Source: Candidatus Latescibacterota bacterium
GTDB taxonomy: Bacteria; Latescibacterota; UBA2968
DNA: 64,000 nucleotides
Direction of reading: 5' to 3'
NCBI GenBank assembly: GCA_965198115.1
Contig: OZ240241.1
Span: 3,936,001 to 4,000,000, forward strand
Shown: positions 26,642-50,359 of the stretch, one piece after another
Layout: the number at the start of each line of letters is the position of its first letter
Numbering within the stretch: position 1 is the first letter of the stretch
Program-made: the position numbers and the translations under genes
Notes under the pieces: generated by a model
Databases searched by the model: none
The model's input: only the letters and a program-made list of their open reading frames with translations
What the model was told of the DNA's origin: nothing

Positions 26642-26780
26642 AATCTCGCCCATTTGGTAAACAAACACGAAGTCGCGAAGCCTGCCCATCGAAGCCTTGG
26701 CGCAGGTGGGACACGAAGGGGCTGGATGAAAGATAGCCGTTCAAGCGATAGCGGCAAGCTGCGACCCGGGGGCAACGTAC

Positions 26781-26871
26781 TGTCATCCCGGCAGGCTTCA
26801 GGCCGGGATCCACTTTCACCGTCCGGGAAAGTTCAGAATGGACCCCGGCCAAGAACCGTACCGGGGTGACA
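26781..26871. repeat. REPIN-like inverted doublet (TGTCATCCCGG...GGATCCA / TGGACCCCGG...GGGTGACA)
   Basis: Two related palindromes in inverted orientation; relatives at 21556, 29031 and 54775. Confidence 0.75.
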
Positions 26872-26983
26872 TCGTCTCCGTGCGCTGAGTTATGTGTTCT
26901 CTTCTGACCCAGCGTTCTATGAAGCAGAGCTCACGGACGGTGCCCTTTCAGGGCACTATGACACGATTTGTGTGTATTCGTGT

Positions 26984-29011
26984 TCATTTGTGGCTGCTTT
27001 GGTTTTGCGATTCCAGCACGATCTCCGCGACGTCCTTCACCTTCATGACATCCCCGGCCCTGGCATTGGCATCGCCCAGCATCCTCGCACAGAAGGGACA
27101 ACCTACCGCGAGGGTTTCGGCGCCGGTTTCGTTGGCCTCTGCGTAGCGCACGTCGCTGACCACTTTAGAACCCTGTTCCTCTTCCTTCCACATCTGAGCG
27201 CCACCACCACCACAGCAGAATGAATTCCGTCTGTTTTGTGGCATTTCACGGACTCGCGTTCCCGACTTTTCGAGCGATAGTCGGGGAGCGTCATACGTCC
27301 CGCTGTGCCGACCGAGGTAGCAGGGGTCGTGGAAGGTAACATTCTCACCGGCACCCGCGTTCGTTTCGAGCAGCCCGCCATCGATCGACTCCTGGATCAG
27401 CTGGGTGTGGTGGATGACCTCGTACTCTCCCCCCAGGTCCGGATACTCGCTGCCCAGTGTGTGTGCACAATGCGGGCAGCCCGTGACGATCCGCTTTTTG
27501 TCGACGTCAGCCGTGTTCAGGGTCTTGATGTTCTGCTTCGCCATCTCGTAAAAGAGATGTTCGTTCCCCGAGCGGCGTGCCACGTCACCCGTGCACGACT
27601 CCTCGTTGCCCAAAACAGCGAAACTGATTCCGGCCCGATGCATCAGCGTCGCGATGGCTCGAGCAACGCGCTGCGCAGTCGGGTCGAATGCCCCCGCGCA
27701 ACCGACCCAATAGAGCAAATCGTAGTCAGGGTTCTGCTCAACCGTGGGCACGTCGAAATCCAGCGGTTTCGTCCACGCCAGACGGTCTTCCGTCATCTGC
27801 CATGGATTCCCATTCCGTTCCATCCCGGTGTAGGCGCCTCTGAGCTCATCGGGAAACTTCCCGTTCATCAGAACCTGATCGCGTCGAACATCCAGAATGT
27901 CGAACATCGGTTCGTTCCCGACTGGACACGCTTCTGCGCACGCTCCGCAACTCAAACACGCCCACGTCGCGGACTCGCTAATTGCGTAGTCCATCAGCGT
28001 TCCGCCGTCCTCATCGCCTGAAGCGAGTCCCTTCAGATTCTGCTTCAGGTACGCGCGTTTGTTGACCTCCAGCGCCGAGGGCGACAGTTCTTTCCTCGTC
28101 ACATAAGCGGGACAGACATCCTGGCATCGGTTGCACGCGATGCACGCGAACCCGTCCAAGATCTGCGTGCGCGATAGATCCGTCAGACGAGCGACGCCGA
28201 ACTGCTCGAGCGTTTCATCCTCGAAATCGACGGCCTCGAGGGCGCCGGAGGATCTGCGATCGGGACGCGTCATCCAGTTGAGCGGCCCCATGAACAGATG
28301 GGCGTGCTTCGAATACGGAAAGTAGGGAAGGAAGGCGAGGATCAGGCCCAACGCGAGCCACCAGCACACGTGCCGTGCGACATCGAGTTGAGACGCGTGC
28401 AGACCGGCCCACAGATGAGCCACGGCGCCCGCGACCGGCTGCCAGGGATCCGCCCCCTCCTGTGCGATGGCGACGGTGGCACCGAGGAATCGGAATCCGA
28501 CGTGGCCCAGAATGAACAGACCGACGATCAATGAATCCCGCGAGATTCCCGTCAGTGCGTCAGGGTAAAGCTTGATGTTATCGTGGTAGTCGAGGGAATC
28601 AGACCGTGCAACGAATCGTCTGGCCAGGAGGAAGGTCACGCCAACCAGCGCCGCCACCGTCAGAACGTCGCTCAACAGCCGGAACAGATCCCATCCCAGG
28701 GATGGGGCGCGCTCGTGAGAAACGACGAAGAAGCCTTCGGCGAGATCCACCAGGTTCACGAGCAGGTAGAACAGGAATCCCCACGCAACGAAGGCGTGGA
28801 GAATCGACACAAGGGGACGGCGACGGACCATCCAACCCTGAGTGACAAGTGCGCCGAGACCCTCGATCATGCGCCGTGGCAACGCAGCCCAATGCAGTAT
28901 GCCCTGTCCACGATTGATCACGCGGATCATTCGTCTGAACGTGATGAATGTCCACGACAGGGAGATGAGTGTTGCTACGACGAAGAGGGTTTTTTCAATG
29001 GGTGTCAGCAT
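26984..29011 (-). CDS. fadF: Membrane Fe-S oxidoreductase (FadF/HdrD-like, CCG domains)
   Basis: N-terminal TMs; CIACNRCQDVCP and CLSCGACAEACP; CTGD, GCPHC, HDPCYLGR and CCGGGG. Confidence 0.88.
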   Translation of the reverse strand: MLTPIEKTLFVVATLISLSWTFITFRRMIRVINRGQGILHWAALPRRMIEGLGALVTQGWMVRRRPLVSILHAFVAWGFLFYLLVNLVDLAEGFFVVSHERAPSLGWDLFRLLSDVLTVAALVGVTFLLARRFVARSDSLDYHDNIKLYPDALTGISRDSLIVGLFILGHVGFRFLGATVAIAQEGADPWQPVAGAVAHLWAGLHASQLDVARHVCWWLALGLILAFLPYFPYSKHAHLFMGPLNWMTRPDRRSSGALEAVDFEDETLEQFGVARLTDLSRTQILDGFACIACNRCQDVCPAYVTRKELSPSALEVNKRAYLKQNLKGLASGDEDGGTLMDYAISESATWACLSCGACAEACPVGNEPMFDILDVRRDQVLMNGKFPDELRGAYTGMERNGNPWQMTEDRLAWTKPLDFDVPTVEQNPDYDLLYWVGCAGAFDPTAQRVARAIATLMHRAGISFAVLGNEESCTGDVARRSGNEHLFYEMAKQNIKTLNTADVDKKRIVTGCPHCAHTLGSEYPDLGGEYEVIHHTQLIQESIDGGLLETNAGAGENVTFHDPCYLGRHSGTYDAPRLSLEKSGTRVREMPQNRRNSFCCGGGGAQMWKEEEQGSKVVSDVRYAEANETGAETLAVGCPFCARMLGDANARAGDVMKVKDVAEIVLESQNQSSHK

Positions 29012-29224
29012 TTGAAATGAATCTTAGGCAAATGGACCCCCTTCGACAGGCTCAGGACAGGCGGCCAAAAAGCATACCGGGGTGACAGTGTGTTTCGTGG
29101 ATGCAACAGGCTCAGTTCGCAGCCTCCCTCGACGTAGCTCGGGACAGGGTCCGGCTGCTCCCACCGAAGACGTGATACACCAAGGAAATGCCACGCCCGC
29201 TCACCCGCTCGCCATGTCTCACGT

Positions 29225-30220
29225 TCATCTGTCTAGCGTACCCAAGCGCTTCTTGAACTCCTCGGTCAGCGCCGGCACGTATTTGAACAGATCCCCCACG
29301 ATGCCGTAGTGTGCGTGGTTGAAGATCGGGGCTTCCGGGTCCTGGTTGATCGCGACGATCACCTTCGACGTCTTCATGCCCGCCAGATGCTGAATCGCCC
29401 CCGAGATACCGCAGGCGATGTAGAGATCGGGCTGCACGGTTTTCCCCGTCTGTCCCACCTGATGGGCATAGGGAATCCATCCCGCATCCACCGCCGCTCG
29501 ACTCGCGCCCATCGCTCCGTGGACGGCATCGGCCAGCGCCTGGATCGGTCCGAAGCCATCGGGCCCGCCAACGCCCCGCCCTCCGGAAACGACGATCTTC
29601 GTGTCCGTCAAACTGACTTTACCGGATGCGAACTCATAGGAATCGATCACCGAGGGGATGTCGTCTTCAGACAACACGGAATCAACCTTCTCGATGACCC
29701 CGCTCCTCCCTGTATCCCGTTCTCCGACTGGGAAGACACGTCTGCGCACGGTGATCACGTTCGGTCGCTTCTCAGCAAACCGGACGGTCGCCAGGAGATT
29801 CCCGATCAGGGCGGGACGTGTAGCCACGAGCACGCCATCCTCGACCGCGAGCGCGATACAGTCTGACGCCAATCCCGAACCCAGCTTCGCAGCCACGAAG
29901 GCAGCCAGCTCCTGTCCCGCCTGGCTGGCGCCCATCACGATCGCATCGGGCGTCTCGGCCTCTGCCACGCTCGTCACCACAGCCGCGTAAGGCTCGACCC
30001 TGAAGCCCGAAAGCGTCGGGTCATCGACCACAATCGCCCGATCGGCCCCGTGTTGGATGGCCTCGTTCGCCAGGTCGTCGACCCCATCACCAAGCACGAG
30101 TGCGACGACCTCGCCTCCGGTTTCTCTAACCACGGATCGGGCAGCGCTCAGCGCCTCCCACGCGATGGGATCAGTCGTTTCGTTGTTTTGATCGATCCAG
30201 ACGAGAATGGAATTCGGCAT
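29225..30220 (-). CDS. etfA: Electron transfer flavoprotein alpha subunit
   Basis: VVSGGRG, GASRAAVDAGW, QVGQTGKTV and GISGAIQHLAGM motifs. Confidence 0.95.
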   Translation of the reverse strand: MPNSILVWIDQNNETTDPIAWEALSAARSVVRETGGEVVALVLGDGVDDLANEAIQHGADRAIVVDDPTLSGFRVEPYAAVVTSVAEAETPDAIVMGASQAGQELAAFVAAKLGSGLASDCIALAVEDGVLVATRPALIGNLLATVRFAEKRPNVITVRRRVFPVGERDTGRSGVIEKVDSVLSEDDIPSVIDSYEFASGKVSLTDTKIVVSGGRGVGGPDGFGPIQALADAVHGAMGASRAAVDAGWIPYAHQVGQTGKTVQPDLYIACGISGAIQHLAGMKTSKVIVAINQDPEAPIFNHAHYGIVGDLFKYVPALTEEFKKRLGTLDR

Positions 30221-30423
30221 GGGTATTATGTATATCGGCCGTGGCCGCCGAGGGTATCGCGGACCGATGGCCCGCTTGACGGTGACCTGCCCGTTGCACC
30301 CAGCCCGTTGGGCTGGGCTAGGATATCACGGGCCGTTGGCCCGTGGACCATCCAACGCCTTTGAGGGACTTTCTTTCGGAACTCGGATATCGCTACTCGG
30401 CACTCGGATATCGGTTTACTGCC

Positions 30424-31215
30424 CTAAATCACCTGATCGGCAATTAACCGGTCCGCCAGGGTCTTCGCGGCGTCGGCCGGGTCGCCGTCGATCAACTCGA
30501 GGCTCGCATCGCGTACGGGGGGAAGTGAGAGGTCCGAACGGATGAGCTGGGATCCGGCTTCTCCGACACGATCGGCTTCCAACCCGAGATCGCCGATCGT
30601 CCAGACGGGGATATCCGCGTTAGCCGCCTTCCGAATCCCGATGAACGTCGGGTAGCGTGGCTCGTTGATCTCCTTCACGACCGTCACCACGGCGGGCAGC
30701 GTCGACGATATCGTCTCGCGCCCATTCTCGAGCAACCTGACCGCATTGAGACTACCCTCCGACGGATCGACCGACAACTCGGCGACATACGAAATCGGCG
30801 GAACACCGAGTAACGCCGCAACCTGAACGGCCGTCGCCGCGTGGTTGTCGTCGATCGATGCACGTCCCCCGACGATGAGGTCGAAATCTCCCACCTTATG
30901 AATGGCCGCCACCAGCACACGTGCGGTCGCGAGGCTGTCGCTGCCCTCCAGCGCCTCATCGGAGATCAGGATGGCTTCGTCTGCCCCCATCGCGAGCCCT
31001 GTCTTCAGCGCCTCGGCCGCCTCCGGCTCGCCCACGGACAGCACCGTCACCTTTCCGCCGTGCGCTTCCTTCAGCTGAATCGCGGTCTCCAGCGTATACT
31101 CGTCCCAAGGATTGACGATGCGCGGCTGGCCCTCCTGCATCAGCTGAAGGCCATCGACCGTCCCCGAAAGCTGGGCAGTGTCGGGCACCTGTTTGACGAG
31201 AGCGATGATGTTCAT
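30424..31215 (-). CDS. etfB: Electron transfer flavoprotein beta subunit
   Basis: VKQVPDT, NPWDEY.LE.A, LAMGAD and INEPRYP motifs. Confidence 0.95.
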   Translation of the reverse strand: MNIIALVKQVPDTAQLSGTVDGLQLMQEGQPRIVNPWDEYTLETAIQLKEAHGGKVTVLSVGEPEAAEALKTGLAMGADEAILISDEALEGSDSLATARVLVAAIHKVGDFDLIVGGRASIDDNHAATAVQVAALLGVPPISYVAELSVDPSEGSLNAVRLLENGRETISSTLPAVVTVVKEINEPRYPTFIGIRKAANADIPVWTIGDLGLEADRVGEAGSQLIRSDLSLPPVRDASLELIDGDPADAAKTLADRLIADQVI

Positions 31216-31240
31216 TTTAGATTTTGACTTAACGTCAGCC

Positions 31241-31398
31241 ATGCGTCCCTAGTGCACAATGCGTCCCTGTGCACAGCCCTTCGACTACGCTCAGGACAGG
31301 CGCCGGGACGAGCACGGACGCATCCTTTTTTTAAACGAAAACGCGCCACGCTCGCCCTCGTCCCTTCGACTCCGCTCAGGACTGCACGAGGGCGCTAT
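31241..31398. repeat. Composite palindromic repeat; 52 bp (31347-31398) identical to 34877-34928
   Basis: CACGCTCGCCCTCGTCCCTTCGACTCCGCTCAGGACTGCACGAGGGCGCTAT at both loci, plus a shared ATGCGTCCCTGTGC...GGGACGAGCAC unit. Confidence 0.85.
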
Positions 31399-31417
31399 AC
31401 CAGGGCGGGCAACCGCT

Positions 31418-32626
31418 TCACTCTTCCGCCTGCCACACCTCAGCATCATACGGTGGCAACTCACACCTCAACGGCCGGTCCACACGATCTCCCAGCAGGT
31501 AACTCGCCTGCACCAGCTGATGGATCTGTGAAGTTCCCTCATAGATCTGTGCGCCCTTGCTGTTGCGCAGGTGTCGCTCGACGTTATACTCGTCCGAGAA
31601 TCCGTAGGCCCCGTGAATCTGGACGGCATCGTTGGCCGTCGTGTTCGCTGCATCCGTACAGAACCACTTCGCCATGCTCGTCTCGCGCGTGTTACGAATC
31701 CCCTCGTTTTTCATCCATCCGACCTTCCGCACGAGCAATTCACCGATGTCGATACGCTGCTGCATCAGCGCCAGCATCTGCTGAACGAGCTGATGCTCTG
31801 CGATCGGCTTTCCGAACGTCTTGCGCTCCCGGGCGTACTTCACGGACTCCTCGAGGCACGCCTTCATCGTGCCCACGCCGCCTGCCGCGACCGTGAACCT
31901 GCCGTTGTCGAGCGCGCTCATCGCAACCTTGAAACCCTCGCCCTCCTCACCGATTCGGTGAGATACGGGCACAGCCACGTTCTCCATATTGACCCATCCG
32001 GTATTGCTCGCGCGTGCGCCAAGCTTGCCTTCGATCGTACCGGTCGTCAGGCCCGGCCATCCACGCTCCAGGATGAACGCCGTCATACCCCGTACGCCGG
32101 CCTCTGGATCGGTCTTGACCACCACCAGAAACCGGTCCGCGATATCCGCCAGCGTAATCCACATCTTTTCGCCGTTCAGCAGGTATTCATCACCCTCCCG
32201 TACGGCGCGGCTCGTCATCGCACCCACGTCTGAACCTGCGCCAGGCTCAGTCAGCCCGAAGCACGCGATCTTTTCACCCGTCGCCACCGGCGGGATGAAC
32301 CGCTCCTTCTGCGCGTCCGTGCCCCACTGGAAGACCGGCATCGCGTGTAAGGCCAGCGTGACCGCCAGCGTTTCCCGCACAGATGTGTCGGCCCACTCGA
32401 GTGCCTCAGACACGATCCCCAGGGACGTGTAGTCCATACCCGCCCCGCCGAATCGCGCGGGCAGGCACACACCCAGAAAGCCCTGACCGGCCAGTTTGGG
32501 CAGCAACTCATCAGGAAAGGTGTGGTTTCGATCGTGGTCTCGGATGATCGGCATGATCTCCTTACGAGCGAAGTCGTAGACCATGTCTTGAATCATCTTG
32601 TGTTCTTCGGTCAGTTCGAAGTCCAT
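31418..32626 (-). CDS. Acyl-CoA dehydrogenase
   Basis: [35 protein letters not shown] and IYEGTSQI motifs. Confidence 0.95.
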
Positions 32627-32926
32627 CCTTGTTCTCCCCTACCGCTCCGAGAAAAGCCGTCTTTCCCTTTTACCTTTTTGCTTTCCACTTCTTACTTCCG
32701 GCCGCTAGGCCGAATGATCGTGCTTGCCAGAATGCCGATCCGTACGCTTTCTGCAGGCAGAAGGGCGGCCAAAAGGATAACACGAAAGAATGCCACGCAC
32801 CTTTGCTTTTTCCAATCCGTGCAGGGAGCTTGCGCATCCCGCGAGTAGACAGCCAGAAAGCAACGCCGGCGGACCCCCTCAGCAGGCAGCTGTGTCTGCG
32901 TTCTCATTAACAATGGGAGTTAACCG

Positions 32927-33463
32927 ATGAGAAATCGATTGCTCAATCTGACGCTGGTCCTCTGCCTGGGTCCTCTGGCAATCGGATGCGGCGGATACAA
33001 CCTGGTTATCGATGAGGCCAAGGTACTTGAACTGGACGCCAATCGTATCGCGTATACCATCACTGTGAAGAACGAAGAACACAGTGGGGCCTACTGCGGA
33101 AACGAGCGGTTTTACGGATCAGCAGCGGTGAGCGTCCTCTTGGCCAACGAACCTACCCGTGACGCGTCCGTAGTCAAGGCGGCGGGTGGTGCGGGAACCT
33201 TCGGAACCGCGCTGCCAGGCGATCCCAATGCCGCATACGGTTTCCGAGTTCTCGAAGTGGGCGAGGCGAGCAGCATCTACTTTAGCAATGTGAACCCCGA
33301 GGGTGGTATCGACTTGAATTTGACTCCTTACCTGGTGATCACACTCAGATCGAGCACTGAACCCTCCTATTTTGCCACGCACAACACAGGTACATCGAAC
33401 TTCGGCTGCATCCGCTATGGAGAGATCCAGATCATCGATCTGCGTACTCTTTCCTTACCCTAA
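32927..33463 (+). CDS. Hypothetical lipoprotein
   Basis: RBS GGGAG, signal peptide with lipobox LAIGC, beta-rich body. Confidence 0.65.
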   Translation: MRNRLLNLTLVLCLGPLAIGCGGYNLVIDEAKVLELDANRIAYTITVKNEEHSGAYCGNERFYGSAAVSVLLANEPTRDASVVKAAGGAGTFGTALPGDPNAAYGFRVLEVGEASSIYFSNVNPEGGIDLNLTPYLVITLRSSTEPSYFATHNTGTSNFGCIRYGEIQIIDLRTLSLP

Positions 33464-33612
33464 CGCCGAAGCTCGCGTGGGCCACCACCTAAACCGAAAT
33501 GGGCAAAGCCGGAATCTCCATCAGTCATCCGCGACTTCCGTTCAGTCCGAATCCTCCAGACTCACGCGGGAAGACACAAGCATGCAGGTGAACACACCAG
33601 AGGAGTTGTCTG

Positions 33613-34803
33613 ATGTCGGGGGCCCTTGAAGGTATCCGGGTTCTCGATATGTCCAGGCAGCTTGCCGGGCCCGGGTGTGCGATGATGTTGGGCGATCTGG
33701 GGGCAGACGTCATCAAGGTCGAACGTCCCGGTGTCGGAGACGAAACGCGATCTTGGGGTCCCCCCTTCGTCGAAGGCGAATCGGCCTACTACCTGTGCAC
33801 GAATCGAAACAAGCGCAGCCTCACGCTGAACCTGAAGGACGAACGAGGCGTGGCCATCGCGCGGCGTTTGGTGAAAGAGAGCGACGTGCTGATCGAGAAC
33901 TTTCGGATCGGCCGCCTGGGCGAGATGGGGCTGGGATACGAAGATCTGAAGGCAGGGAGCCCGCGACTGATCTACTGTTCCATCAGCGGCTTTGGCCACA
34001 CCGGTCCCGACCGGGATCTCCCCGGCTACGACTTTATGATCCAAGCCCGCGGTGGGTTTATGTCCATCACCGGCGAAGAAGACGGCCAACCCACAAAGGT
34101 GGGTGTGGCCATCGCCGACATTGCCGCCGGACTCTTTGCCAACTCCGCTGTCCTCGCCGCCCTCTACGCCCGGGAAAAGACGGGCAGAGGACAGCATCTC
34201 GACATGGCGCTGATGGACGCGCAGGTCGCCTTGCTGGCGAACGTCGGTAGCGGCGCGCTCTGCACGGGTGAACTGCCCAAGCGCTACGGGAACGCCCATC
34301 CCATGGTTGTTCCTTACCAGACGTTCGAGGCCTCGGACGGCCATCTCGCTCTGGCCATCGGCAACGACCGACAGTTCGCCAGCTTCTGCAAGGCCGCAGG
34401 CAGCCCGGACTGGCCCAGCGACGAACGTTTCGCCACAAACCCGAAACGGGTCGCGAATCGTGACGCGCTGATCGCTGAGATGTCCAGTCTGTTCATGGAA
34501 AGGACCGTCGCCGAATGGTTGTCTCTATGCGCCGAAAATGACGTACCGGCTGGACCCGTCAACACCGTCGACAAAGTGTTCGAAGATCCACAGGTCCAGG
34601 CTCGTGGAATGCTCGTCGAGGTGCCCCACCCGACCGTCGGAACGGCGCGACTCGCCGGATCGCCGATGAACCTTTCAGATACGCCGGTCGAGATACGACG
34701 GCCGCCGCCCCTGCTGGGTGAACATACGGACGAGATTTTGGTGGAGGAGCTGGGGTACTCTGATGGAGAAGTGGACGCACTTAGACGGGATGGAGTTGTG
34801 TAG
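33613..34803 (+). CDS. CaiB/BaiF class III CoA transferase
   Basis: LEGIRVLD, DLGADVIKVERP, NRNKRS and PPLLGEHT motifs. Confidence 0.95.
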   Translation: MSGALEGIRVLDMSRQLAGPGCAMMLGDLGADVIKVERPGVGDETRSWGPPFVEGESAYYLCTNRNKRSLTLNLKDERGVAIARRLVKESDVLIENFRIGRLGEMGLGYEDLKAGSPRLIYCSISGFGHTGPDRDLPGYDFMIQARGGFMSITGEEDGQPTKVGVAIADIAAGLFANSAVLAALYAREKTGRGQHLDMALMDAQVALLANVGSGALCTGELPKRYGNAHPMVVPYQTFEASDGHLALAIGNDRQFASFCKAAGSPDWPSDERFATNPKRVANRDALIAEMSSLFMERTVAEWLSLCAENDVPAGPVNTVDKVFEDPQVQARGMLVEVPHPTVGTARLAGSPMNLSDTPVEIRRPPPLLGEHTDEILVEELGYSDGEVDALRRDGVV

Positions 34804-34811
34804 GTGACGAT

Positions 34812-34928
34812 CAATGCGTCCCTGTGCTGTGCACAGGGACGAGCACAACGCGTTGTTTTTTAATTCATATAAGCGTCACGCTCGCCCTCGTCCCTTCGAC
34901 TCCGCTCAGGACTGCACGAGGGCGCTAT
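34812..34928. repeat. Second copy of the composite palindromic repeat
   Basis: See 31241-31398. Confidence 0.85.
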
Positions 34929-34957
34929 GACAGTCGCATACGGAAAGTGAACACCAG

Positions 34958-37297: not shown

Positions 37298-37326
37298 GGA
37301 TCGAAGAGAGATCAGGAATTCGGAGG

Positions 37327-37390
37327 TTGTCTCTCTTGGAGATGTCATCTATACTCTATATGTTCTCAAAATAAGAGCAACTGTTCTCAA
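37327..37390 (+). promoter_or_regulatory. Sigma70-like promoter plus putative autoregulatory operator of the MNT-HEPN operon
   Basis: TTGTCT-N17-TATACT; downstream imperfect dyad TGTTCTCAAAATAAGAGCA and direct repeat TGTTCTCAA (37361, 37382). Confidence 0.6.
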
Positions 37391-37989
37391 TGATAGATCA
37401 AATGGACATCCTCACGGTCCTCACATCGTCGAAATCGAGGTCCACGATCCTCGGCCTCTTCTTTGATTCTCTGCCGGTCACCCTACACCTGCGAGAGGTG
37501 GAACGCCGCACGGGGATCTCCACTGGGACCCTGCACCGCGAATTGGACCGGCTTGTTTCACACGGGCTCTTGAAATCCGAACGGGACGGCAATCGCGTTC
37601 AGTACACTGCGAACAGGGATCACCCCCTCTTCGACACACTTCGCGAACTCGTTCTGAAGACCGTGGGGCTACCCGCCCATATCGCCCAAGCACTGGCTGG
37701 CCTCCCAATCGATGCTGCATTCATCTTCGGTTCTCTACCACGAAACGAAATGAGAGAGGACAGTGACATCGACCTCTTGGTGATCGGTGATACATCGCTG
37801 AAGGACATTGTCTCGCGCCTCCCTCCCGTCGTGAGCAGATCTGGGCGGGAAGTGAACCCCTATGTCCAGAATGAAGAAGAGTTCAAGCGGCGGGTCAGTG
37901 CGGGTGAACACTTCGTCCGATCTGTCCTGGAGAACGAAAAGCTGTTCGTGATTGGGGATGAACGTGTCCTTGAACGACTGGGTGCGTGA
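37390..37989 (+). CDS. wHTH + minimal nucleotidyltransferase (MNT antitoxin)
   Basis: HLREVERRTG..GTLHRELDRL HTH; IFGS...SDIDLLVIG NTase motif. Confidence 0.88.
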   Translation: MIDQMDILTVLTSSKSRSTILGLFFDSLPVTLHLREVERRTGISTGTLHRELDRLVSHGLLKSERDGNRVQYTANRDHPLFDTLRELVLKTVGLPAHIAQALAGLPIDAAFIFGSLPRNEMREDSDIDLLVIGDTSLKDIVSRLPPVVSRSGREVNPYVQNEEEFKRRVSAGEHFVRSVLENEKLFVIGDERVLERLGA

Positions 37990-39783
37990 AGGCTACCTAA
38001 AGCCACACCGAACAAGTCCTCAGGAAGTCAGCAATCTCCTGGCGATCGTTGAACGGGACTTGCAGGATGCGACAGCTACAATCTCCACAGACTGGCAGTT
38101 TGGAATTGCTTACAACGCCGCACTCACGCTCAGCTCGATCGTGCTTCACGCTTCGGGTTACAGAGCTGTCGGACGAGGTCATCACTTCCGAACCATCCAG
38201 TCGCTCTCCCTCATATTGGGTACCGAGACCCGTGACCTTGTCACGAGTTCAGGTCAATAGGTGTGTAAAAGAAATCAGGCGGCCATCTTCCCGGCTTCGA
38301 CCTGCGGTCCGGTTGAGTGTTTCTGATCGTAGACTTGTTGTAGCAAGTGTGGCGCGGTGAGTTTCCTGAATCGGCTCTCTGCGACCTTGAGCGTACGCCA
38401 GATGAGAGTCGTGGCGTTCCTGACTTTCTTGAATCGCCTGGCGGCGTTTGTGCGAAGCCGAACGGAAGCAAAGGGGCTCTCGACGACGTTCGTGGTTCTC
38501 AGGTGTTTCCAGTGTTCCTTCGGGAAGTCGTAGAACGTGACCATCCGATCCCAGTCTCTTTCGAGCGTCTCCACGGCGGCAGGGAACTGTGAGCGATACC
38601 GTGCGGCAAAGCGTTTCCGGAGCTTCTCGGCCTCCTTTTTCGTGCCGGCATAGGGGATCTGGACGAGCAGTGCGCGGGCTTCAGCCTGTGCACGCTTGGC
38701 GACCTTGTCGAGCACGTTGAGGATCTTGTGGTTCCAGCACCGTTGTTGCCGGCTCTCTGGCCAGACCTGATCAACGGCCGCCCAGATGCCCATATTCCCG
38801 TCCGCGGCGATCAGGACAGGATGTTCGAGCCCGCGATCCCGGAGATCCCGGAGCACCGTGAGCCAGGATTCTGTAGACTCTCGATAACCGGGTTCTATCG
38901 CCAGGATCTCCTTGCTGCCGTCGCTCATCGCGCCGATCACGACCAGCAGACACGCCTTCTCGCGCTCGAGCCCGGCTTTGACGTAGATGCCATCAGCCCA
39001 GGCGTAGACCAGTTCGCGATTATCCAGACGCCTTTCTTTCCAGTCCTGGAAGTCGACCTCCCACTTCCCTCGAAGACGAGCGATCGAGGTCGGCGAAAGC
39101 GGCGCGCCATCACCGAGCAGCGCACGCAAAGACAACTCGAAGTCGCCCTGGGAGAGACCGTGGAGATAAAGGTCGGGAAGCAGATCTCCAATGGCCCTGG
39201 TTCTCCGGGCGAACAGGGGGAGGATGCGGCTTTCAAACCGCTCTTCCAGACCACGAACCCGGGGACGCCGGACCTTGATCGTTCCGCAGCTCGTCGAGAG
39301 ACGCCGGGGCTTGCCGTAGCCGTTCCTGTAGCCCGTGGAGCTATCGACCTCGGCTCGGCGCTCATACCACGACCGGCCCAAGAACGCGGTCGCCTCCTCC
39401 TCCAGATGGACTGGAACCGGCTCTGGATCTCTTCACGGATCCAATCGTCAACCGTCTCCCACGTCGGCATGGACTTCAATGGGGTTCTATGCGTATGTTC
39501 CTTCACGGCGATCCTCCTTCCCAACCGGGCCTCTCACCCGGTTTTGTGTGAATCAACTATCTCACGGGAAGGGTAGGGTCGCCCTTTCTCTTTTTCCACA
39601 CCTTTTGATTATAGCTCCCTTGTCACCTACCTGGACACTTGCCGTCGAAAGCGGAACACGGTGGAGTACGACACCATCGGTTCAACGACCGAGCAGGATG
39701 CTGTAGAGTTGAGAGAGACGGTCAATCAACTCTCGGAAACCGTCGTGGCCTGGTTGAGAAACCACCACCCGGAGCTATTGTAG
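37958..39783 (+). pseudogene. HEPN-domain toxin interrupted by IS256-A copy 3
   Basis: Overlaps the MNT stop. N-part AYNAAL..GYR..GHH; after the IS the frame resumes as YLDTCRRKRNTVEYD...HHPELL*. Confidence 0.85.
38245..39617 (-). mobile_element. IS256-A copy 3; transposase has a 1-nt deletion near 39406
   Basis: Reverse-complement copy; TSD CCTTGTCAC (38236-38244, 39618-39626). Confidence 0.95.
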
Positions 39784-39966
39784 CTGATTTCCACCTATTC
39801 GCCCATTCAACTTTCAGATCACGCCGCGTTTGCTATTTCCTGCTTTCAATTTCACCTTTCTGCCAGATGCCACCGACGGAAGAGTCTGCACTCTCATGTA
39901 TTTTGTGTGAGCCTGCCTCGAACGAACGTGAGAGGCGGTTCGTTTTTGCGTTATGAGGATTGAAAA

Positions 39967-40962: not shown

Positions 40963-41228
40963 ACCACGAAGACACGGAGACACCAAGAAGGACGGGGAAC
41001 ACGAAGGCGCAAAGTTTGAGCGGGAGACGGGGAGGCTGTGGAGCAGGCGTGGCGTCTGCTTTCTCAGTGTCTTTTCCTCGAGTGATTTCTCAGAGATCTC
41101 AGTGGCGCGTCCCGACGTTTTTCGTGTGTTTCGTGTATGGAGCCTGCCTCGAGCGGAGGCGAGAGGTGGTTCGTTTTGGTTTCCTTCCGTTTGGTCCGTG
41201 GTCCCCGTCTTGAAATTAAGGACATCAC

Positions 41229-42526: not shown

Positions 42527-42678
42527 TGGGGCCGCGCCCTCATTGCAGTTCCGTAACGCACACAAACAACCCCGACCGTGGCGTCCGGTTCCCGGCCTCG
42601 GACTACGGCCAACGATCCTCCAATCTTATTGACCAGCTCCGAGCTGCTGACCCACACCCATCGCCATAGAGACCTACC

Positions 42679-43975
42679 ATGTCTAGGCCAAACATCATCT
42701 TCATCCTTTGCGACGACCTCGGATACACCGACCTCGGCTGCTATGGCGGCACGGTCATTCCAACACCCAACCTCGATCGTCTCGCCCAGCAAGGCGTGCG
42801 ATTCACGCAATGCTACACCGCTTCCTCGATCTGCGCCCCGTCTCGGTGCGTCCTCAACACCGGTCTGCACAGCGGTCACTGTCGTGTGCGCGACAACTTC
42901 GGCATCGTCGGTGGCGTCGGGGATCAGAAGCGAGTCCCGCTCGAGCCCGAAGATTTCACCGTCGCGGAGCTCCTTAAAGGGGCCGGATACACCACCGGCA
43001 TGACGGGCAAATGGGGTCTCGGTGAACCCGACACGACCGGTGTTCCAAATCGCAAGGGCTTCGACGAGTGGTTCGGGTATCTCAACCAACGTCGCGCGCA
43101 CACCTATTACCCGGACTACCTGTGGCGAAACGAGGAACGCGTCGACTATCCCGAGAACGAAGCCGAGAACCAGGTCACGTATGTCCACGACCTCATCTTC
43201 GAATTCGCGATGGATTTCATCCGCGAACACCGAGACGGACCCTTTTACCTTCACGTTCCGTGGACGTTACCCCACGGTGCATTCGAGATTCCTTCCGTCG
43301 GCGTCTTCGAAAGCGAGAACTGGTCGGACGGCGAAAAGGTCCACGCCGCCATGGTCACGAAGATCGACAACGCAAGTCGGCCAGATCGTAGACCTTATCA
43401 AAGAGCTGGGAATCGACGACAACACGCTCATCTTCTTCGGATCGGACCACGGGTCGGGCCACTCCTGGCAGGACACATTCAACAGCTGCGGTCCTCTCAG
43501 AGGCAAGAAAGGCGATATGTACGAAGGGGGCCTCCGCACGCCTTTGATCGTCAGCTGGCCGGGCAAGCTACCCCTGGGCAAGACCAACGATACAACGGTC
43601 TGGTACTATGCCGACTTCATGTCCACCGTCGCCGACATCATCGAAGCGAAAGCACCCGAGACCGACGGCGTCAGCATTCTTCCCACTCTCCTCGGTGAGG
43701 ATCAGGATCTGTCCTATCGCTTCCTCTACTGGGAGCGCCACGGTGGCGGGTTCAAGCAGGCGGTAAGGTGGCAGAACTGGAAGGCCGTCCGACCCCCGAC
43801 AGACCGCCTCCTCAACGAACCCCTCGAACTCTACAACCTCGACACCGACCTCGGCGAAACCAGGGATGTCGCCGGCCAACAACCCGAGGTCATCCGTCGC
43901 ATCAGCGACTACCTCGCCGACGCGAGGACCGCGTCGAAGAACTGGCCCATCGGCGTGAAGGGGTCACACGCTTGA
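42679..43975 (+). pseudogene. Arylsulfatase, frameshift near 43372
   Basis: PNIIFILCDDLG, CAPSR and GKWGLG; second frame SDHG..RGKKGDMYEGGLRTP..ELYNLDTD. Confidence 0.88.
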
Positions 43976-44075
43976 TTGCGGCCTGCGGCCTCGATCGAGT
44001 GTTCGGTGTTCGGGGATCAAGAAACTACCCACGCGCAGGTTTCAATGGACCTCCGAATCCACTCCCGACTAGGGA

Positions 44076-44220
44076 CTCGAATCCTTTCAAACGACCCTCA
44101 GCGTTCTCAGCCTGCCCTGAGCTTTGTCCTGAGTAAGCGACCGAAGGTCGCTATACCAAAGGGTAGTCTGCAAACAGGAGCGTATCGAAGGGTTTCCTCA
44201 GTGGCTGCTCTTTCTACGGA
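44076..44220. repeat. Intergenic repeat shared with 47968-48069, with two nested hairpin cassettes
   Basis: Shared flanks CTCGAATCC..CGACCCTC.GCGTTCTCAG and T.TCCTCAGTG.CTGCTCTTTCTA.GGA. Confidence 0.85.
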
Positions 44221-44246
44221 GTGTCATCAGCTATCCTCCCGCCCCC

Positions 44247-46118
44247 TCATCCATCTGCCGCTGATGTTCGCCGCGCCACCCCACCGGTGCCCCAATCGAG
44301 TTCAGGCCGCATATCCACAACCGCCTCGGCCAACTGCCCTCGGTGAACGCCGTCGAGGGTTGCATCCAGGGCAATTGGCTGGCGCCTGTAAGCGGTAGCC
44401 TGATCTGGCGGCACTCTCAATAGAAAATCGACAATCTCTTTTTTCCCGGGATCTGCCGTCACCGTTCCGCAACTCGGTCGCGCTTCCCAGCCGTCTGGCA
44501 GGACCAATTCGTACTCCAGTGTAGAGGGCACCGACTTGATATTTTCGAACCACACCTGCATGCGCACCTCCTCTCCGGGTGCTGCTGGCGGTTGATACGG
44601 ATACAGAAAAACGTGGTCCGGGTAGAGGGCTTCCTCCAGATTTTCGGGTGCAGCAAGTGCGCGCCAGTGGATCTGCTCTGTGATGCACCAATCGTGATAG
44701 ACCTTCCACTCTTCCGGGCCAATCTCCCACGGCCCGCCGTGCCCGGGACACGTCAACTCCGGCTGATGCTCCAGGTAGAGCTTACCCGTAATCTGGTGGG
44801 AATTGGCGTGCACGTGATTGCGCCAGATGTTGTTCGACTGGTATCCCTTCCCCTCCCGCACACCCACCTCGTCTCCGGAAAACACGACCCGCTTGCCGTC
44901 GATCTCACCGAACATTGCCATGTGATAGTCGGCGTGACCCGGCGTGTGGAAGACCTGAAACTCGAACTCCTCCCACTGGAAGGTTTCCCCCTGCCCGAGC
45001 GCCCGCTCCACCTTCAACGGAGTGGGGAAAGTACACCCCAGCTTGTAGCCGTGCGGGTGCTGCAGAATGTCGACCATATTCTCGAAGCACCAGATTTTCG
45101 TACCGTGATGCTGCTGCAGATAGGGCAGCCCGTTGACGTGATCGTCGTGATAGTGGCTCGGCATGGCCAGATCGATCTGCTTCATGCCAAAACTATCCCG
45201 CAGGATATCCAGATTGTGCTCGAGTGGACGCAGGCGATTGCCGGCTTCAAAAAAGACTTCGAACGAATACATGAACGTCCGGCTCGGGGAGCCGTAATCA
45301 ACGAAAAGGGCTTTGCCGCTGTCGCTGATAACAATCCACGTGTTCGAACAGCCGGGGATCTGCACCAGATGAGGAAGCACCGAGCGGGGAGCCACATCCA
45401 GGGAAGGCGTTTCGATGCTGTACCGGTGTTCGAGATAGGCACGGAACTTTGTCTCGAGACTCTGAAGCGCGCTGGCTGTGTCGCCAAAGGGACGGCCGTG
45501 GGAAGGACAGAGCATGTCGGTATTGTGGTTCCGCATCTTGCAGAGCGAGTAAACCATGTAGTCGCAGCCATCGCCCTGGGCATAGGCGTACTGGAGATCG
45601 TAGAGAGCCTGAACCTTACCCGGCGCAGCAATCAAATCTCCGCTGAATCCCACCTTCTGCCCGTCGATCTCTGCAATCAACGCGATGTGACCGAGCGAGT
45701 GACCGGGCGTCGGCTGAACGAAGAATCGATATCTCCCCCACTCGAACGTCTCGTAATCCTCGAGCACGCGTGACGTACGCACGCTCTGGGCCAGCGTGAA
45801 AAAGGTCTGCCGCACATCATAAATGTCATAGATTTGCCGCGACCCCCAGAACACCTCCACCTCATCGAAATAGGGGCGCTCCTGGGCAGGCACCGCAATC
45901 GGGATATTGCGCTGATTGGCTATCGCGTCCCCCTGGCACTGGTCGCGATGGTGGTGGGTGTGCAGGATCCAATCGACCTGGGTGATGCCCAGATCACCTA
46001 GACCGTCGAGTACCTTGCCGCTGCCGAAGTCAATCAGCACAACCCTTGTGCCTTCCTTGACCACATACACATTGCAGGTGTCTTCGAACAGGTACAGATT
46101 CTCGGATATCTTTTCCAA
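44247..46118 (-). CDS. Tandem two-domain MBL-fold hydrolase with C-terminal Ig-like domain
   Basis: THHHRDQ/TPGHS and SHYHDDH/TPGHA motifs. Confidence 0.85.
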   Translation of the reverse strand: MEKISENLYLFEDTCNVYVVKEGTRVVLIDFGSGKVLDGLGDLGITQVDWILHTHHHRDQCQGDAIANQRNIPIAVPAQERPYFDEVEVFWGSRQIYDIYDVRQTFFTLAQSVRTSRVLEDYETFEWGRYRFFVQPTPGHSLGHIALIAEIDGQKVGFSGDLIAAPGKVQALYDLQYAYAQGDGCDYMVYSLCKMRNHNTDMLCPSHGRPFGDTASALQSLETKFRAYLEHRYSIETPSLDVAPRSVLPHLVQIPGCSNTWIVISDSGKALFVDYGSPSRTFMYSFEVFFEAGNRLRPLEHNLDILRDSFGMKQIDLAMPSHYHDDHVNGLPYLQQHHGTKIWCFENMVDILQHPHGYKLGCTFPTPLKVERALGQGETFQWEEFEFQVFHTPGHADYHMAMFGEIDGKRVVFSGDEVGVREGKGYQSNNIWRNHVHANSHQITGKLYLEHQPELTCPGHGGPWEIGPEEWKVYHDWCITEQIHWRALAAPENLEEALYPDHVFLYPYQPPAAPGEEVRMQVWFENIKSVPSTLEYELVLPDGWEARPSCGTVTADPGKKEIVDFLLRVPPDQATAYRRQPIALDATLDGVHRGQLAEAVVDMRPELDWGTGGVARRTSAADG

Positions 46119-46130
46119 GTTCCCTCCTGA

Positions 46131-47900
46131 CTACACGACAAACTGAAAAGAACACAGCTTAACGGCGTGTCCGATAAAAACGCAGCCGAAGAGCTATAAT
46201 CAAAAGGTGTGGAAAAAGAGAAAGGGCGACCCTACCCTTCCCGTGAGATAGTTGATTCACACAAAACCGGGTGAGAGGCCCGGTTGGGAAGGAGGATCGC
46301 CGTGAAGGAACATACGCATAGAGCCCCATTGAAGTCCATGCCGACGTGGGAGACGGTTGACGATTGGATCCGTGAAGAGATCCAGGGCCGGTTCCAGTCC
46401 ATTCTGGAGGAGGAGGCGACCGCGTTCTTGGGCCGGTCGTGGTATGAGCGCCGAGCCGAGGTCGATAGCTCCAGGGGCTACAGGAACGGCTACGGCAAGC
46501 CCCGGCGTCTCTCGACGAGCTGCGGAACGATCAAGGTCCGGCGTCCCCGGGTTCGTGGTCTGGAAGAGCGGTTTGAAAGCCGCATCCTCCCCCTGTTCGC
46601 CCGGAGAACCAGGGCCATTGGAGATCTGCTTCCCGACCTTTATCTCCACGGTCTCTCCCAGGGCGACTTCGAGTTGTCTTTGCGTGCGCTGCTCGGTGAT
46701 GGCGCGCCGCTTTCGCCGACCTCGATCGCTCGTCTTCGAGGGAAGTGGGAGGTCGACTTCCAGGACTGGAAAGAAAGGCGTCTGGATAATCGCGAACTGG
46801 TCTACGCCTGGGCTGATGGCATCTACGTCAAAGCCGGGCTCGAGCGCGAGAAGGCGTGTCTGCTGGTCGTGATCGGCGCGATGAGCGACGGCAGCAAGGA
46901 GATCCTGGCGATAGAACCCGGTTATCGAGAGTCTACAGAATCCTGGCTCACGGTGCTCCGGGATCTCCGGGATCGCGGGCTCGAACATCCTGTCCTGATC
47001 GCCGCGGACGGGAATATGGGCATCTGGGCGGCCGTTGATCAGGTCTGGCCAGAGAGCCGGCAACAACGGTGCTGGAACCACAAGATCCTCAACGTGCTCG
47101 ACAAGGTCGCCAAGCGTGCACAGGCTGAAGCCCGCGCACTGCTCGTCCAGATCCCCTATGCCGGCACGAAAAAGGAGGCCGAGAAGCTCCGGAAACGCTT
47201 TGCCGCACGGTATCGCTCACAGTTCCCTGCCGCCGTGGAGACGCTCGAAAGAGACTGGGATCGGATGGTCACGTTCTACGACTTCCCGAAGGAACACTGG
47301 AAACACCTGAGAACCACGAACGTCGTCGAGAGCCCCTTTGCTTCCGTTCGGCTTCGCACAAACGCCGCCAGGCGATTCAAGAAAGTCAGGAACGCCACGA
47401 CTCTCATCTGGCGTACGCTCAAGGTCGCAGAGAGCCGATTCAGGAAACTCACCGCGCCACACTTGCTACAACAAGTCTACGATCAGAAACACTCAACCGG
47501 ACCGCAGGTCGAAGCCGGGAAGATGGCCGCCTGATTTCTTTTACACACCTATTGACCTGAACTCCAGCCGAACGGGACGTCCCCGAAGCGATGAAAGATC
47601 GGGACGGCCTTTCCACGTCACAGTCTGTTCAGATCGTTGAACACCAGCCAGTCGGCCTCCGCCCTGGCGGGCCCAATAACCGTGGCCCGTCTCGTCGAGG
47701 ATTTCCACTCTGAGCCAGCCCCGTGAACTGGCATCAATATTCACCTGGAGACGGTTGCCGTCGAGGGTAAAAGGAACCATCGTCAGCCGACCCTCGTCCG
47801 TACCCACGTCCTGAGACACAAAGCCGTCGCGCCTCAAACGCAAACGGCCGATGACCGCACTGTTCATCCTGAAAATAGCGAAACCGGGCCCCCCGCAGTT
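46131..47900 (-). pseudogene. C-terminal remnant of a beta-propeller glycoside-hydrolase-like gene, split by IS256-A copy 4
   Basis: LRRDGFVS, LQVNIDA..GWLRVEILD and DLSSLRGRPVRL on one side; RF...KLCSFQF beyond the IS. Confidence 0.6.
46191..47564 (+). mobile_element. IS256-A copy 4 (transposase 46284-47534)
   Basis: Same protein as copy 1; 8-bp TSD CAGCCGAA. Confidence 0.95.
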
Positions 47901-47967
47901 CACGCTGGTCACCAAAATCGATACTCAGGTAGGCCAGATCGTCGACCTCCTGGATGAGCTGGGGCCC

Positions 47968-48069
47968 CTCGAATCCCTTCATACGACCCTCCGCGTTCTC
48001 AGCCTGCCCTGAGTAGCCTGCGAAGCAGGCGTATCGAAGGGTGTCCTCAGTGACTGCTCTTTCTATGGA
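47968..48069. repeat. Second copy of the 44076 repeat, with a single cassette
   Basis: Alignment to 44076-44220. Confidence 0.85.
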
Positions 48070-48940
48070 AATAACCCTCGCTACGCCCGATGATTTCGAT
48101 GCGATCGCTCGTCTCATCCAAGCGACGTCTCGCTCGCCGGCGACGCACTGCCTCCACGCGGAAACGGCCGAGTCCGTCGACGATATGGTCGCCGAGATAC
48201 GACAGCTGACGAATAGCGGTGAGCTTATCGTTGCCATCGCACGGGACCACCATCTCAGGGCAATGATTGGATGCGAATATGCAAGGGAGCTCAAGCGAGG
48301 TTGGCTCAGAGGGCCGGTTCAACAGGATGGCGTGACCGAAGCACAGGCCCTCTACGAGGCACTCGTGTCGTCTCTGCCGGAGGAGATTACTCGACTGGAC
48401 ACGTTTCTCAACGCAGAAAACGCTGACGGGGACGCGTTCTATCGATCGAAAGGCTACCGGCCAGAGGGCCTCACGCACGTCTACGAAACGAGTCGCGAGA
48501 CCGCCATCTTCTCAGACTCCATGTGCCGGGTCCTGGAAGAACACCAGTTCGAAGAGTTCAAACGGGTTCACAACCACGTGTTCCCGTCGACGTATGCGGA
48601 TGGTCGTGAGATCATCGAGCAACTCGACCCGCACAAGCAGGTCCTCGTCTACGTCAATCACGGCGAAGTGCTCGGCTATGTTCGTGCGCTCGTCGAGTCC
48701 GAAAAAGAGGGCTACATCGAATATCTCGGTGTTCGATCGGACGCCCGACGTCAAGGCATTGGGCGAAAGCTCCTTCACGCTGCCCTGGGATACCTTATCG
48801 CAGAACGTGGCAACGACATCGTGTCACTCTGCGTCAGCGACGGCAACACGAATGCCCGCCAGCTTTACGAAAACGTCGGGTTCGCGTTGAAACACACGGG
48901 CGTGAATCTTCGCCTGATTCGAACCGCAGAACCCACGTGA
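48065..48940 (+). CDS. Tandem GNAT acetyltransferase
   Basis: YLGVRSDARRQGIGRKLL and NTNARQLYENVGF; first domain AFYRSKGY. Confidence 0.88.
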   Translation: MEITLATPDDFDAIARLIQATSRSPATHCLHAETAESVDDMVAEIRQLTNSGELIVAIARDHHLRAMIGCEYARELKRGWLRGPVQQDGVTEAQALYEALVSSLPEEITRLDTFLNAENADGDAFYRSKGYRPEGLTHVYETSRETAIFSDSMCRVLEEHQFEEFKRVHNHVFPSTYADGREIIEQLDPHKQVLVYVNHGEVLGYVRALVESEKEGYIEYLGVRSDARRQGIGRKLLHAALGYLIAERGNDIVSLCVSDGNTNARQLYENVGFALKHTGVNLRLIRTAEPT

Positions 48941-48959
48941 CGCAACGGCCCGACCGCCG

Positions 48960-50227
48960 ATGACCGCGAACCCCACCCCATCCTCCCAATCCCTCTTCCA
49001 AATTTACCGTCAACTCAATCGCGACGTCCGTCTATACCTCCTGGCCTCGGCCATCGTCGGCTTCACGATCTTCGGCGGCGTCGAAACCGTCATTCTGAAC
49101 CTGTACCTGCTGAGACTCGGCTACGGGTCGAAGTTCATCGGGTGGGTCAACGCGACCGGCGCCCTGACTAACACCCTCGTCGCCATGCCCGCTGGTGTCC
49201 TCGGACTGCGCATCAGCAGACGCCACATGATGATGGCCGGTATGCTTCTGATGGCGACAGGACTCGGCGCATTACCTTTCGCCGAATATCTCCCCGAGCA
49301 TATGATGCGCTCGTGGCTGCTCGCGACTCGAGGTGTGAGCTATCTCGGGATGGGGATCTTCCAAATCGGTGGGACGCCCTTCCTGATCGGGGCTACACGT
49401 CCAGAAGAGCGCAATCACGCCTACGCGTTTCACACGGCAATCGGTCCCCTCGCAGGTCTGGCCGGGGGTCTCATCGGCGGTCTTCTCCCTTCGATCTTCG
49501 CGGGGCTTTCGGGGGTTGCTCTCACGGACACGAGCCCGTATCGACAGACACTATGGGTGGCTGCACTCGTGATCATCCCGGGCTTCTTTCTCGTCCGAGC
49601 CACGACCGCGACGTATTCCGGCGACCTCCGGAGAGCCGACCGTGGAAAGAGCTCGGCCCCGACCCTCCTGTTTGTCCTGCTGTTTCTGTCGGGTTTTCTC
49701 CAACTGGCGGGCGAACGTGTCGCAAGAACGTACTTCAACGTGTATATGGACGTCGATTTCGCCGGTTCACCCTCTTTCATAGGCGCGTGCTGGTCCGCAG
49801 GTCACTGTCTCTCCGTGGTCACCGCTCTACTCACACCGTTTCTCTGCAAACAGTGGGCATCATCAACGTCTCCACCGTCGGTGCGTTCGGTATGGTCATC
49901 AGCCTCCTGGTCATGACCTACGTCCCGAGTTCCCACATCGTAGGTCTCGCCTTCATCAGCCTCATCATGTTCGCCGCCGTCCGGAGACCCGCCTACACAG
50001 TCCATCATCAGGAACTCGTCACCCCAGCCTGGCGCCCCACGATGGCCGGATGCACCTCTTTCGGGTCGGGCGCCAGCGAATTCACGATGGCTCTCCTCGG
50101 AGGCTACACCATCGCCACGGCCGGCTTTGTTCCCGTGTTTGAAACAGGCGCCCTGATGACAACCGTCGGGGCGGGTCTCTTCTGGCTTTACTTCCGTCAT
50201 CCTCGTGGCGAACGTGGGAAGGCTTGA
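48960..50227 (+). pseudogene. MFS transporter, frameshift near 49855
   Basis: NLYLLRLGY, ERNHAYA and many TM helices; the C-terminal TMs continue in ORF 49313-50227. Confidence 0.8.
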
Positions 50228-50359
50228 ACCACCAAGCATGTCCTGAGCGGAGTCGAAGGGACTCCAAGACACCAAGAACCTTGAACAGGAAGACGCGAAG
50301 TCGCGAAGAAAGACCGGGGTCGGCGGAAACTTCAGTCATTGCTCTGTGACTCCTGCCCT

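Follow-up and report, generated by a model that had tools for sequence, protein, structure and literature searches.

What are the very short sequences that interrupt repeat after repeat along one stretch of a Candidatus Latescibacterota chromosome, and what moves them? The stretch is a 64,000-nucleotide window (G000:C1:3936001-4000000) of a closed genome (G000) of 8.43 Mb and 59% GC, and it carries metabolic genes together with several insertion sequence (IS) transposases. A preliminary description of the window had pointed to 11 places where short hairpin cassettes appear to sit inside other repeats. All 11 were confirmed in the sequence, and in the window the cassettes so named are either intergenic or at gene starts. 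We find that these cassettes are genome-wide, non-autonomous, very small elements, inserted precisely, for which empty, filled and nested alleles exist, as had been suggested for the window.

Read from the strand that carries GCCTG, each cassette consists of a six-base head (GCCTGY, GCTTGY, GCATGY, GTTTAT or GTACAT), a body and a purine, with a total length of 23 to 42 nt. Three bodies occur behind the common head: body A is CCYGAG-loop-TCGARGG, with a loop that is 4 nt, 5 nt (CGNAG) or long; body B is CYCGAAC/GAGCG...GAGRG; and body C is CCRYCGWAGC...GCGNAGGYGG. The short A and B units measure 23 to 24 nt. Stems are 3 to 5 bp and bulged, and loops reach about 26 nt. Free parent hairpins, by comparison, are tagged GTCAY or GTTCRY. 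The cassettes had been described as one related set, which holds for the head; the bodies belong to three hairpin families, with the cassette at 26681 in family C, those at 39912 and 41143 in family B and the rest in family A. The genome-wide pattern search that had been recommended, run with strict patterns, recovered 182 cassettes (130 A, 40 B and 12 C) against 0 and 0 in two triplet shuffles. This set includes 7 of the 11 sites in the window; those at 29126, 31362 and 34892 and the nested cassette at 44110 are variants. Cassettes are also widely present in metagenome and viral contigs.

Evidence for precise insertion comes from unoccupied copies of the same host repeats. We searched for these with two anchors, the 9 bases ending at position -4 and the 9 bases after the cassette. 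Empty copies at the exact register, with three bases between the anchors, exist for 101 of the 182 cassettes (93 in an earlier set of 184), and the counts at spacings of 0, 1, 2, 4, 5, 6 and 7 are 3, 5, 25, 22, 12, 16 and 10. As a control, of 300 G sites taken at random from non-coding DNA, 80 recur at all. Clustering by flank yields 80 site clusters, of which 56 are singletons. At one host position, which has 36 empty copies, there are 10 A cassettes with the 4-nt loop, 2 with the 5-nt loop and 6 B cassettes; at another, with 22 empty copies, there are 8 A cassettes with the 5-nt loop, 4 long A cassettes and 1 C cassette. Because different cassette types share single host positions, the cassettes are not fixed parts of one longer repeat, a possibility that had been raised from the start and that the 80 site clusters also contradict. 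Clean self-nested cassettes occur inside the parent hairpin. Note that some filled sites have multiplied passively, since all 10 cassettes of genome G055 belong to a single host-plus-cassette composite. The orthologous intergenic spacers in G001 and G005 contain neither hosts nor cassettes and thus give no junction information.

The junctions follow a simple rule. Of 94 sites, 92 have a host G at the junction, which agrees with the G|CCTG junction first proposed, except that 29126 has C and that no GCCT head is present at 31362 and 34892. The body is followed by G in 157 cassettes, by A in 24 and by C in 1 (n = 182); at several sites this A occupies a position where the hosts have G, so insertion after the host G is the best reading. 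In a clean class (4-nt-loop, long-loop and GTACAT types; 30 testable sites) the upstream bases match the host: those at -6, -5 and -4 differ from all empty copies in 2, 3 and 3 sites, and those at -3, -2 and -1 in 3, 2 and 1. In a replacement class (5-nt-loop, GTTYAT and B types; n = 61), three upstream host bases are exchanged for three others, so that no empty copy shares the base at -6, -5 and -4 in 5, 6 and 6 sites and the base at -3, -2 and -1 in 45, 38 and 52. The absence of target duplication, also claimed earlier, is confirmed beyond the junction G itself, but the upstream triplet is replaced at 31278 (TGT to GGC) and at 41142 (TTC to GGA).

The new triplet is mostly GGA, followed by AGA, GAA, GGC, GTA and TGA, whatever the host triplet had been; where GGA now stands, the commonest triplet of the hosts is any of 13 different ones. 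Empty hosts show 24 different triplets among 94 sites, with only the junction G fixed. Because GGA, GAA, GTA, TGA and CGA are the triplets found just before a G within the parent hairpin (GNA loop, TGA|G), the new triplets largely match that context, and the simplest reading of the sequences is that the replaced triplet would be donor flank carried along with the cassette. Among the matches listed, GGA or AGA precedes 56 of 128 distinct metagenome cassette sites, 92 of which have A at -1; the viral 5-nt-loop sites listed are weakly enriched, with 24 of 71 having A at -1. Local inversion of the host triplet was considered and rejected as a general rule: among 96 sites, 29 keep the host triplet, 16 are possible inversions and 51 are neither. 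GGA followed by a junction base other than G is seen in the cassettes at window 29126-29149 and at G000 positions 2946110, 2817697, 5279812 and 1521750, whose empty hosts have TCC there.

Within the window, the clean class is illustrated by three cassettes on the plus strand. A family C cassette with a GCCTGC head (30 nt; 26680-26709) interrupts a run of ACACGAAG-type repeats that has 20 empty copies in register, with the triplet GAA kept, and a family A cassette with a GCATGT head (50236-50259) interrupts a ACACCAAG run with 7 empty copies, 5 of which have CAA; both interruptions had been recognized beforehand, and the empty copies match at up to 2 mismatches. The third is a 39-nt long-loop family A cassette (48002-48040) inserted cleanly in a GTTCTCA|GTGTCCTCAGTG repeat that has 15 empty copies in register. 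By comparison with it, positions 44110-44191 (plus strand) can be read as a long-loop family A cassette with a second, 42-nt long-loop cassette (44121-44162) at CCTGA|G, so the nesting reported there is genuine. An empty host repeat of the TGTCACCCCGG...GCCGGGGTCCAT type, a long-loop CGTC/SRM-like hairpin, lies at 26837-26872 (minus strand), and 36 empty copies of this host site exist genome-wide. The same host type, spanning about 29031-29095, is filled by a 4-nt-loop family A cassette at 29040-29062 (minus strand). This pair had been offered as empty and filled alleles and is exact, with 22 extra bases; since the cassette adds 23 at other copies of the host, the 29031 copy is one G short in a run of G.

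Replaced triplets are found on both strands. On the minus strand, a 5-nt-loop family A cassette (31278-31301) is accompanied by the triplet GGC (31302-31304) in a CGTCCC...GGGACG palindromic host (feature 31278-31304), for which 6 of the 9 empty copies have TGT. On the plus strand, a family B cassette (41142-41165) follows the replaced triplet GGA (feature 41139-41165) in a TTCGTGTAT-TTC-GTGG repeat, and 9 of 9 empty copies have TTC. At 29126-29149 (minus strand), a family A cassette joins the host at a C and has GGA where the host has TCC; the 11 empty copies read CTCCC where this site has CGGAC. A 24-nt family B cassette at 39911-39934 (plus strand) has TGA in front. For this cassette and the one at 29040, no empty copy in exact register was found at up to 2 mismatches. 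The headless family A body at 31362-31383 (minus strand) is a rearranged composite in a CGCCCTCGTGC host, and 34892-34913 (minus strand) is a second copy; the composite has no GCCT head, adds a net 17 bases relative to 23 empty hosts and exists in about 6 copies.

Cassettes also enter genes, where they add 8 to 16 residues to proteins and split a tRNA copy. A histidine kinase carries an exact in-frame insertion of 8 residues (24 nt) that is missing from its paralog, and a heavy-metal P-type ATPase has an exact 8-residue in-frame insertion that is missing from its ortholog in G001, a genome of the same genus. In both, the head is preceded by AGA, at the place of ACT or ACC in the empty gene. 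Two cassette units give a third gene 16 extra residues, and in two more genes the cassette either arrived together with a longer variable loop or entered one. A C cassette splits the 3' half of a tRNA-Val at G000 5890609, as judged against an intact copy, and ARAGORN calls no gene there. Separately, the histidine kinase paralogs at G000:C1:7633347-7634816 and 5280603-5283545 have other, unrelated repeat-like peptide insertions in the HATPase loop that the cassette occupies; this loop is a tolerant hot spot for insertions.

Which enzyme could be involved? None is encoded nearby: a Pfam scan of 48 open reading frames of the window found no small nuclease, in line with the earlier impression that a cognate enzyme gene is missing there. 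The suggestion of a GIY-YIG link fared well elsewhere in the genome. G000 has four PF01541 matches, two of them small. The first small gene (214132-214464) is surrounded by three long-loop family A hairpins, and the second ends beside a parent hairpin with a nested cassette. Stem-paired family A cores flank both of these UPF0213-like genes on both sides, an arrangement shared by 16 of 6151 called genes in all. Among the best 80 of 493 homolog loci found, from many phyla, a family A hairpin lies within 250 nt of 59 (on both sides in 36), compared with 5 of 142 distant windows.

The encoded protein is UPF0213-like, its closest solved structures being 1ywl and 1zg2, and the GIY-YIG Tyr, Arg and Glu are conserved among 38 aligned relatives. 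An AlphaFold model (pLDDT 89) lacks the first strand, and its best Foldseek match is UPF0213 1zg2, at an E value of only 4.6e-3; an NCBIfam search with the protein returned no family. The local enzyme is 29% identical to an Ssn-like protein from G055. Three proteins that we take to be Ssn-like on their motifs (L359, L360 and L363) form their own starred clade apart from L001 in a poorly resolved 27-row tree, in which at least one row (L081) is apparently out of frame; L362 is presumably SLX1-like, and an SRM match adjoins L363. The presumed Ssn-like genes of G055 and G056 have B-like parents beside them, and in G055 a third type of small GIY-YIG gene is flanked by C parents. Across 140 genomes of the phylum, a homolog of the nuclease is present in 5 of 7 that have at least 6 cassettes, 2 of 11 that have one or two and 9 of 122 that have none. 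Among 31 relatives, a homolog at E 1e-8 was found in 5 of 6 versus 4 of 25 (1 of 25 at E 1e-17). One UPF0213-like GIY-YIG gene, L358 (G057:C184:1412-1678), has a C-terminal tail that consists of translated family A hairpins (LSEVEG-type peptides).

We favor, with belief and doubt about equally weighted, a reading in which the cassettes are minimal versions of the hairpin repeats that flank GIY-YIG genes, moved by a single-stranded DNA cut 5' of the hairpin and by host repair at a G. A precedent exists in SsnA, a GIY-YIG relative that binds its own hairpin as single-stranded DNA, on one strand only, and cuts 5' of it; the cut lies 4 nt before the CGTC tag, as given by a 20-nt product of NTS75 (PMC11893778, in its available text). 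By analogy, the small GIY-YIG nuclease would cut single-stranded DNA 3 nt 5' of the cassette head and so release a piece with a 5' phosphate that includes three flank bases, in keeping with the sharp boundary at -3. This piece might then be joined in at a G elsewhere by host ligase or by repair synthesis, perhaps on single-stranded DNA at the replication fork. The three-for-three class could represent primary insertion, or else an exchange of cassettes, by way of the head and tail they share, at a site that was already occupied. More tentatively, and with somewhat greater doubt than assent, we propose that GIY-YIG single-stranded DNA nucleases are the mobilizing enzymes of a cross-phylum 24-nt class, cutting 3 nt upstream of a portable GCCTGY tag and carrying donor flank along. 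If so, each copy would record three bases of its previous home, and the cassettes would exemplify a transposition route without transposase or recombinase; hardly any mobile element with a named enzyme would be smaller.

Several observations weigh against this nuclease-based reading. We know of no strand-joining chemistry for small GIY-YIG nucleases. The hairpins beside the gene are of the parent type; the GCCTGY form is rare there (1 of the 80 homolog loci), and it was not found in the 120-400-nt flanks of metagenome and viral homolog loci. Both G000 genes look impaired: the first has no ATG or GTG before the first conserved tyrosine, only ATC after a purine-rich stretch, and the second is split by an IS. 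Genome counts treat kin as separate although related genomes are not independent, and G055 and G056, with 10 cassettes each, yielded no homolog with the G000 query. Conversely, no small Ssn-type or SLX1-type gene was found among the four PF01541 matches of G000 despite its B and C cassettes. The offset is 3 nt here and 4 nt for SsnA, which the available text describes as a hydrolytic nuclease without reporting strand joining (PMC11893778). Neither the four sites with GGA and then a non-G base (29126 among them), where local inversion may have occurred, nor some sites at which two bases are replaced by three (AG to AGA) fit simple cut-and-join. Contigs of two runs from one sample, probably the source, showed no empty allele at filled sites in 19 kb of the window or 19.5 kb of L419, rare alleles not being visible in such contigs. 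The fold of a short A cassette is no more stable than shuffles (ViennaRNA in DNA mode, z +0.57 and +0.81), so the label 'hairpin' used from the outset rests, for these units, on a 3-5 bp stem plus non-canonical pairs.

Strand preference was likewise set aside as evidence for a mechanism. The head strand coincides with the locally C-rich strand in 125 of 182 cassettes, 55 of 73 clusters and 43 of 56 singletons. Empty hosts are biased likewise (58 of 63, 16 of 22 and 12 of 17 on the C-rich strand; others lean the opposite way, with 36 of 104 and 13 of 36), and filled copies mostly follow them; for six hosts, about 43 of 69 would be expected on the C-rich strand from host bias and 50 are seen. 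Because it mostly tracks the hosts' own bias, we do not count it, and this too counts against the nuclease proposal.

The best surviving alternative, which we regard as unlikely, is template switching without a dedicated enzyme or with host enzymes. A polymerase stalled at host hairpins, or at nicks from nucleases that belong to the hosts themselves, would copy a nearby cassette through one-base G microhomology and return, and gene conversion between copies would then swap bodies and triplets. This would account for junctions that share only a G, for odd junctions, and for the enrichment of sites in repeats (101 of 182 cassettes, compared with 80 of 300 G sites drawn at random from non-coding DNA); moreover, the 4-nt-loop parent has a loop identical to the head GCCTGTC, an expected outcome of slippage. 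However, both cassette ends are fixed across the 80 site clusters and in unrelated metagenome contigs, the boundary at -3 is sharp, and cassette-rich genomes tend to have the nuclease.

Somewhat less credible is movement in trans, by peel-and-paste, through an HUH/Y1 enzyme (an IS200-type TnpA or a RAYT), the driver that had initially been put forward alongside GIY-YIG. The lack of target duplication, single-strand hairpins and lagging-strand coupling are hallmarks of Y1 enzymes, which can ligate (PMC6006769, available portion), and G000 has 78 PF01797 matches. Against this, a stem-paired family A hairpin lies near only 1 of 54 tested Y1 loci, and there on one side; the IS200 ends examined are different hairpins; and no 4-5-base target is conserved 5' of the site, given the 24 triplets among 94 empty sites. 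An apparent Y1 association from loose patterns (30-46 hits near 54 loci) was discarded: 45 loose matches are the coding end, RLDQL, of the IS itself. The Y1 transposases (L005-L009), with their 78 matches genome-wide, comprise many identical IS200-type copies, several of which are interrupted by other IS.

It is improbable, though it would explain why one head stands on three bodies that belong to three nuclease groups, that a dedicated enzyme of another kind reads the shared GCCTGY head and that GIY-YIG genes explain only the parent hairpins. Two of those nuclease genes were indeed not found among the PF01541 matches of G000, but no candidate gene lies between 7 cassette pairs spaced 150-1300 nt apart or among small genes with cores on both sides. 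Finally, the notion that cassettes are old fixed parts of longer composite repeats that no longer move on their own, to which the single composite in G055, the 10 A4 copies in one host site and the lack of empty alleles over those 38 kb of contigs might lend support, is very improbable in view of the 56 sites that are singletons, of the different cassette types found at one host position, and of copies in unique genes and the tRNA-Val 3' half.

How do the cassettes relate to known systems, as far as the available portions of the cited papers describe these? The closest relative of the parent hairpins is Ssn/NTS/SRM (Chenal et al. 2025, PMC11893778), in which a small single-domain GIY-YIG gene is flanked by oriented hairpin repeats that are also scattered through the genome and that have a short 5' tag and a defined boundary a few bases upstream. 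That arrangement, a small GIY-YIG gene flanked by its own hairpin, is found here for the parent hairpin of family A, and one host repeat is of the SRM type, with 74 SRM matches in G000. Unlike in Ssn/SRM, 0 of 182 cassettes match the degenerate SRM pattern, and SRM occurs near 1 of 61 homolog loci. The portions of that paper available only hypothesize mobility, and insertion alleles or flank carry-over are not reported in them.

The cassettes themselves recall cyanobacterial SDR5, a 21-nt unit inserted precisely into another repeat (PMC4390886, PMC13756078), and SDRs in general (Elhai et al. 2008, via the same two papers), 21-27-nt units inserted precisely into other repeats much as the 23-24-nt A and B units are here. 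Unlike SDRs, they occupy a large number of unrelated hosts instead of HIP1, combine a single head with three bodies, include a class in which 3 bases are replaced, have a candidate enzyme and are distributed widely outside cyanobacteria; family A was compared with SDRs by description only. CGTC-tagged REPs (Di Nocera et al. 2013, PMC3733652) are likewise tagged palindromes of 20-40 nt without a dedicated transposase, with some copies inside other palindromes and in frame in genes. Their anatomy is a CGTC, TGTC or CCTC tag, an 8-9-bp stem, a 4-5-nt loop and a CCA tail, whereas the cassettes have GCCTGY, GTTTAT or GTACAT heads, bulged 3-5-bp stems and loops up to about 26 nt, and they insert as single units at a G, with only free parents carrying GTCAY. 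By its own account, the CGTC-REP survey may have missed bulged repeats. Like REP/REPIN-RAYT and IS200/IS605 repeats (PMC3116915, PMC6006769), the cassettes are non-autonomous hairpin repeats without target duplication and with a probable single-stranded intermediate; unlike them, they show no association with Y1 genes, occur as single units rather than doublets and have no fixed upstream tetra- or pentanucleotide. Miniature inverted-repeat transposable elements have 15-30-bp terminal inverted repeats and a target duplication, whereas a whole cassette measures 23-42 nt with at most a one-base G ambiguity. In sum, cassettes behave as SDR5 does and their parents as Ssn/SRM pairs; the cassettes match neither the SRM pattern nor the CGTC-REP anatomy, and the Y1 tests were negative. 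We found no description of the cassette sequences in the literature, including supplements, although consensuses given only in figures and Elhai 2008 lay outside this search and may hold them.

These relationships matter because CGTC-type REPs and cyanobacterial SDRs have long been without a mobilizing enzyme, and spread of Ssn repeats by the nuclease has only been hypothesized. The junction rule, insertion at a G that is either clean or three-for-three, predicts the cut position of a nuclease of 96-110 amino acids and is thus testable. A new single-stranded DNA nuclease specificity would also be a tool in its own right.

Some host repeats and neighboring features merit separate mention. Two GxxExxY genes (G000:C1:6612334-6612708 and 3766580-3767098) each lie between inverted arrays of short repeats, of the kind that host cassettes; the cassette itself does not flank them, so the GxxExxY link suggested earlier was not borne out. 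Empty TTCGTGTAT-TTC-GTGG repeats, the type that flanks these genes (for example window 41130-41175), lie on the locally C-rich strand in 58 of 63 cases, a hint that these host repeats may be mobile and fork-coupled in their own right. A Mutator/IS256-family element occupies window positions 386-1636, 20008-21258, 38275-39381 and 46284-47534 and has about 245-250 near-identical copies in the genome. The cumulative GC skew of G000 shows apparently unequal replichores and several reversed segments, one over part of the window, consistent with IS-driven inversions or misjoins.

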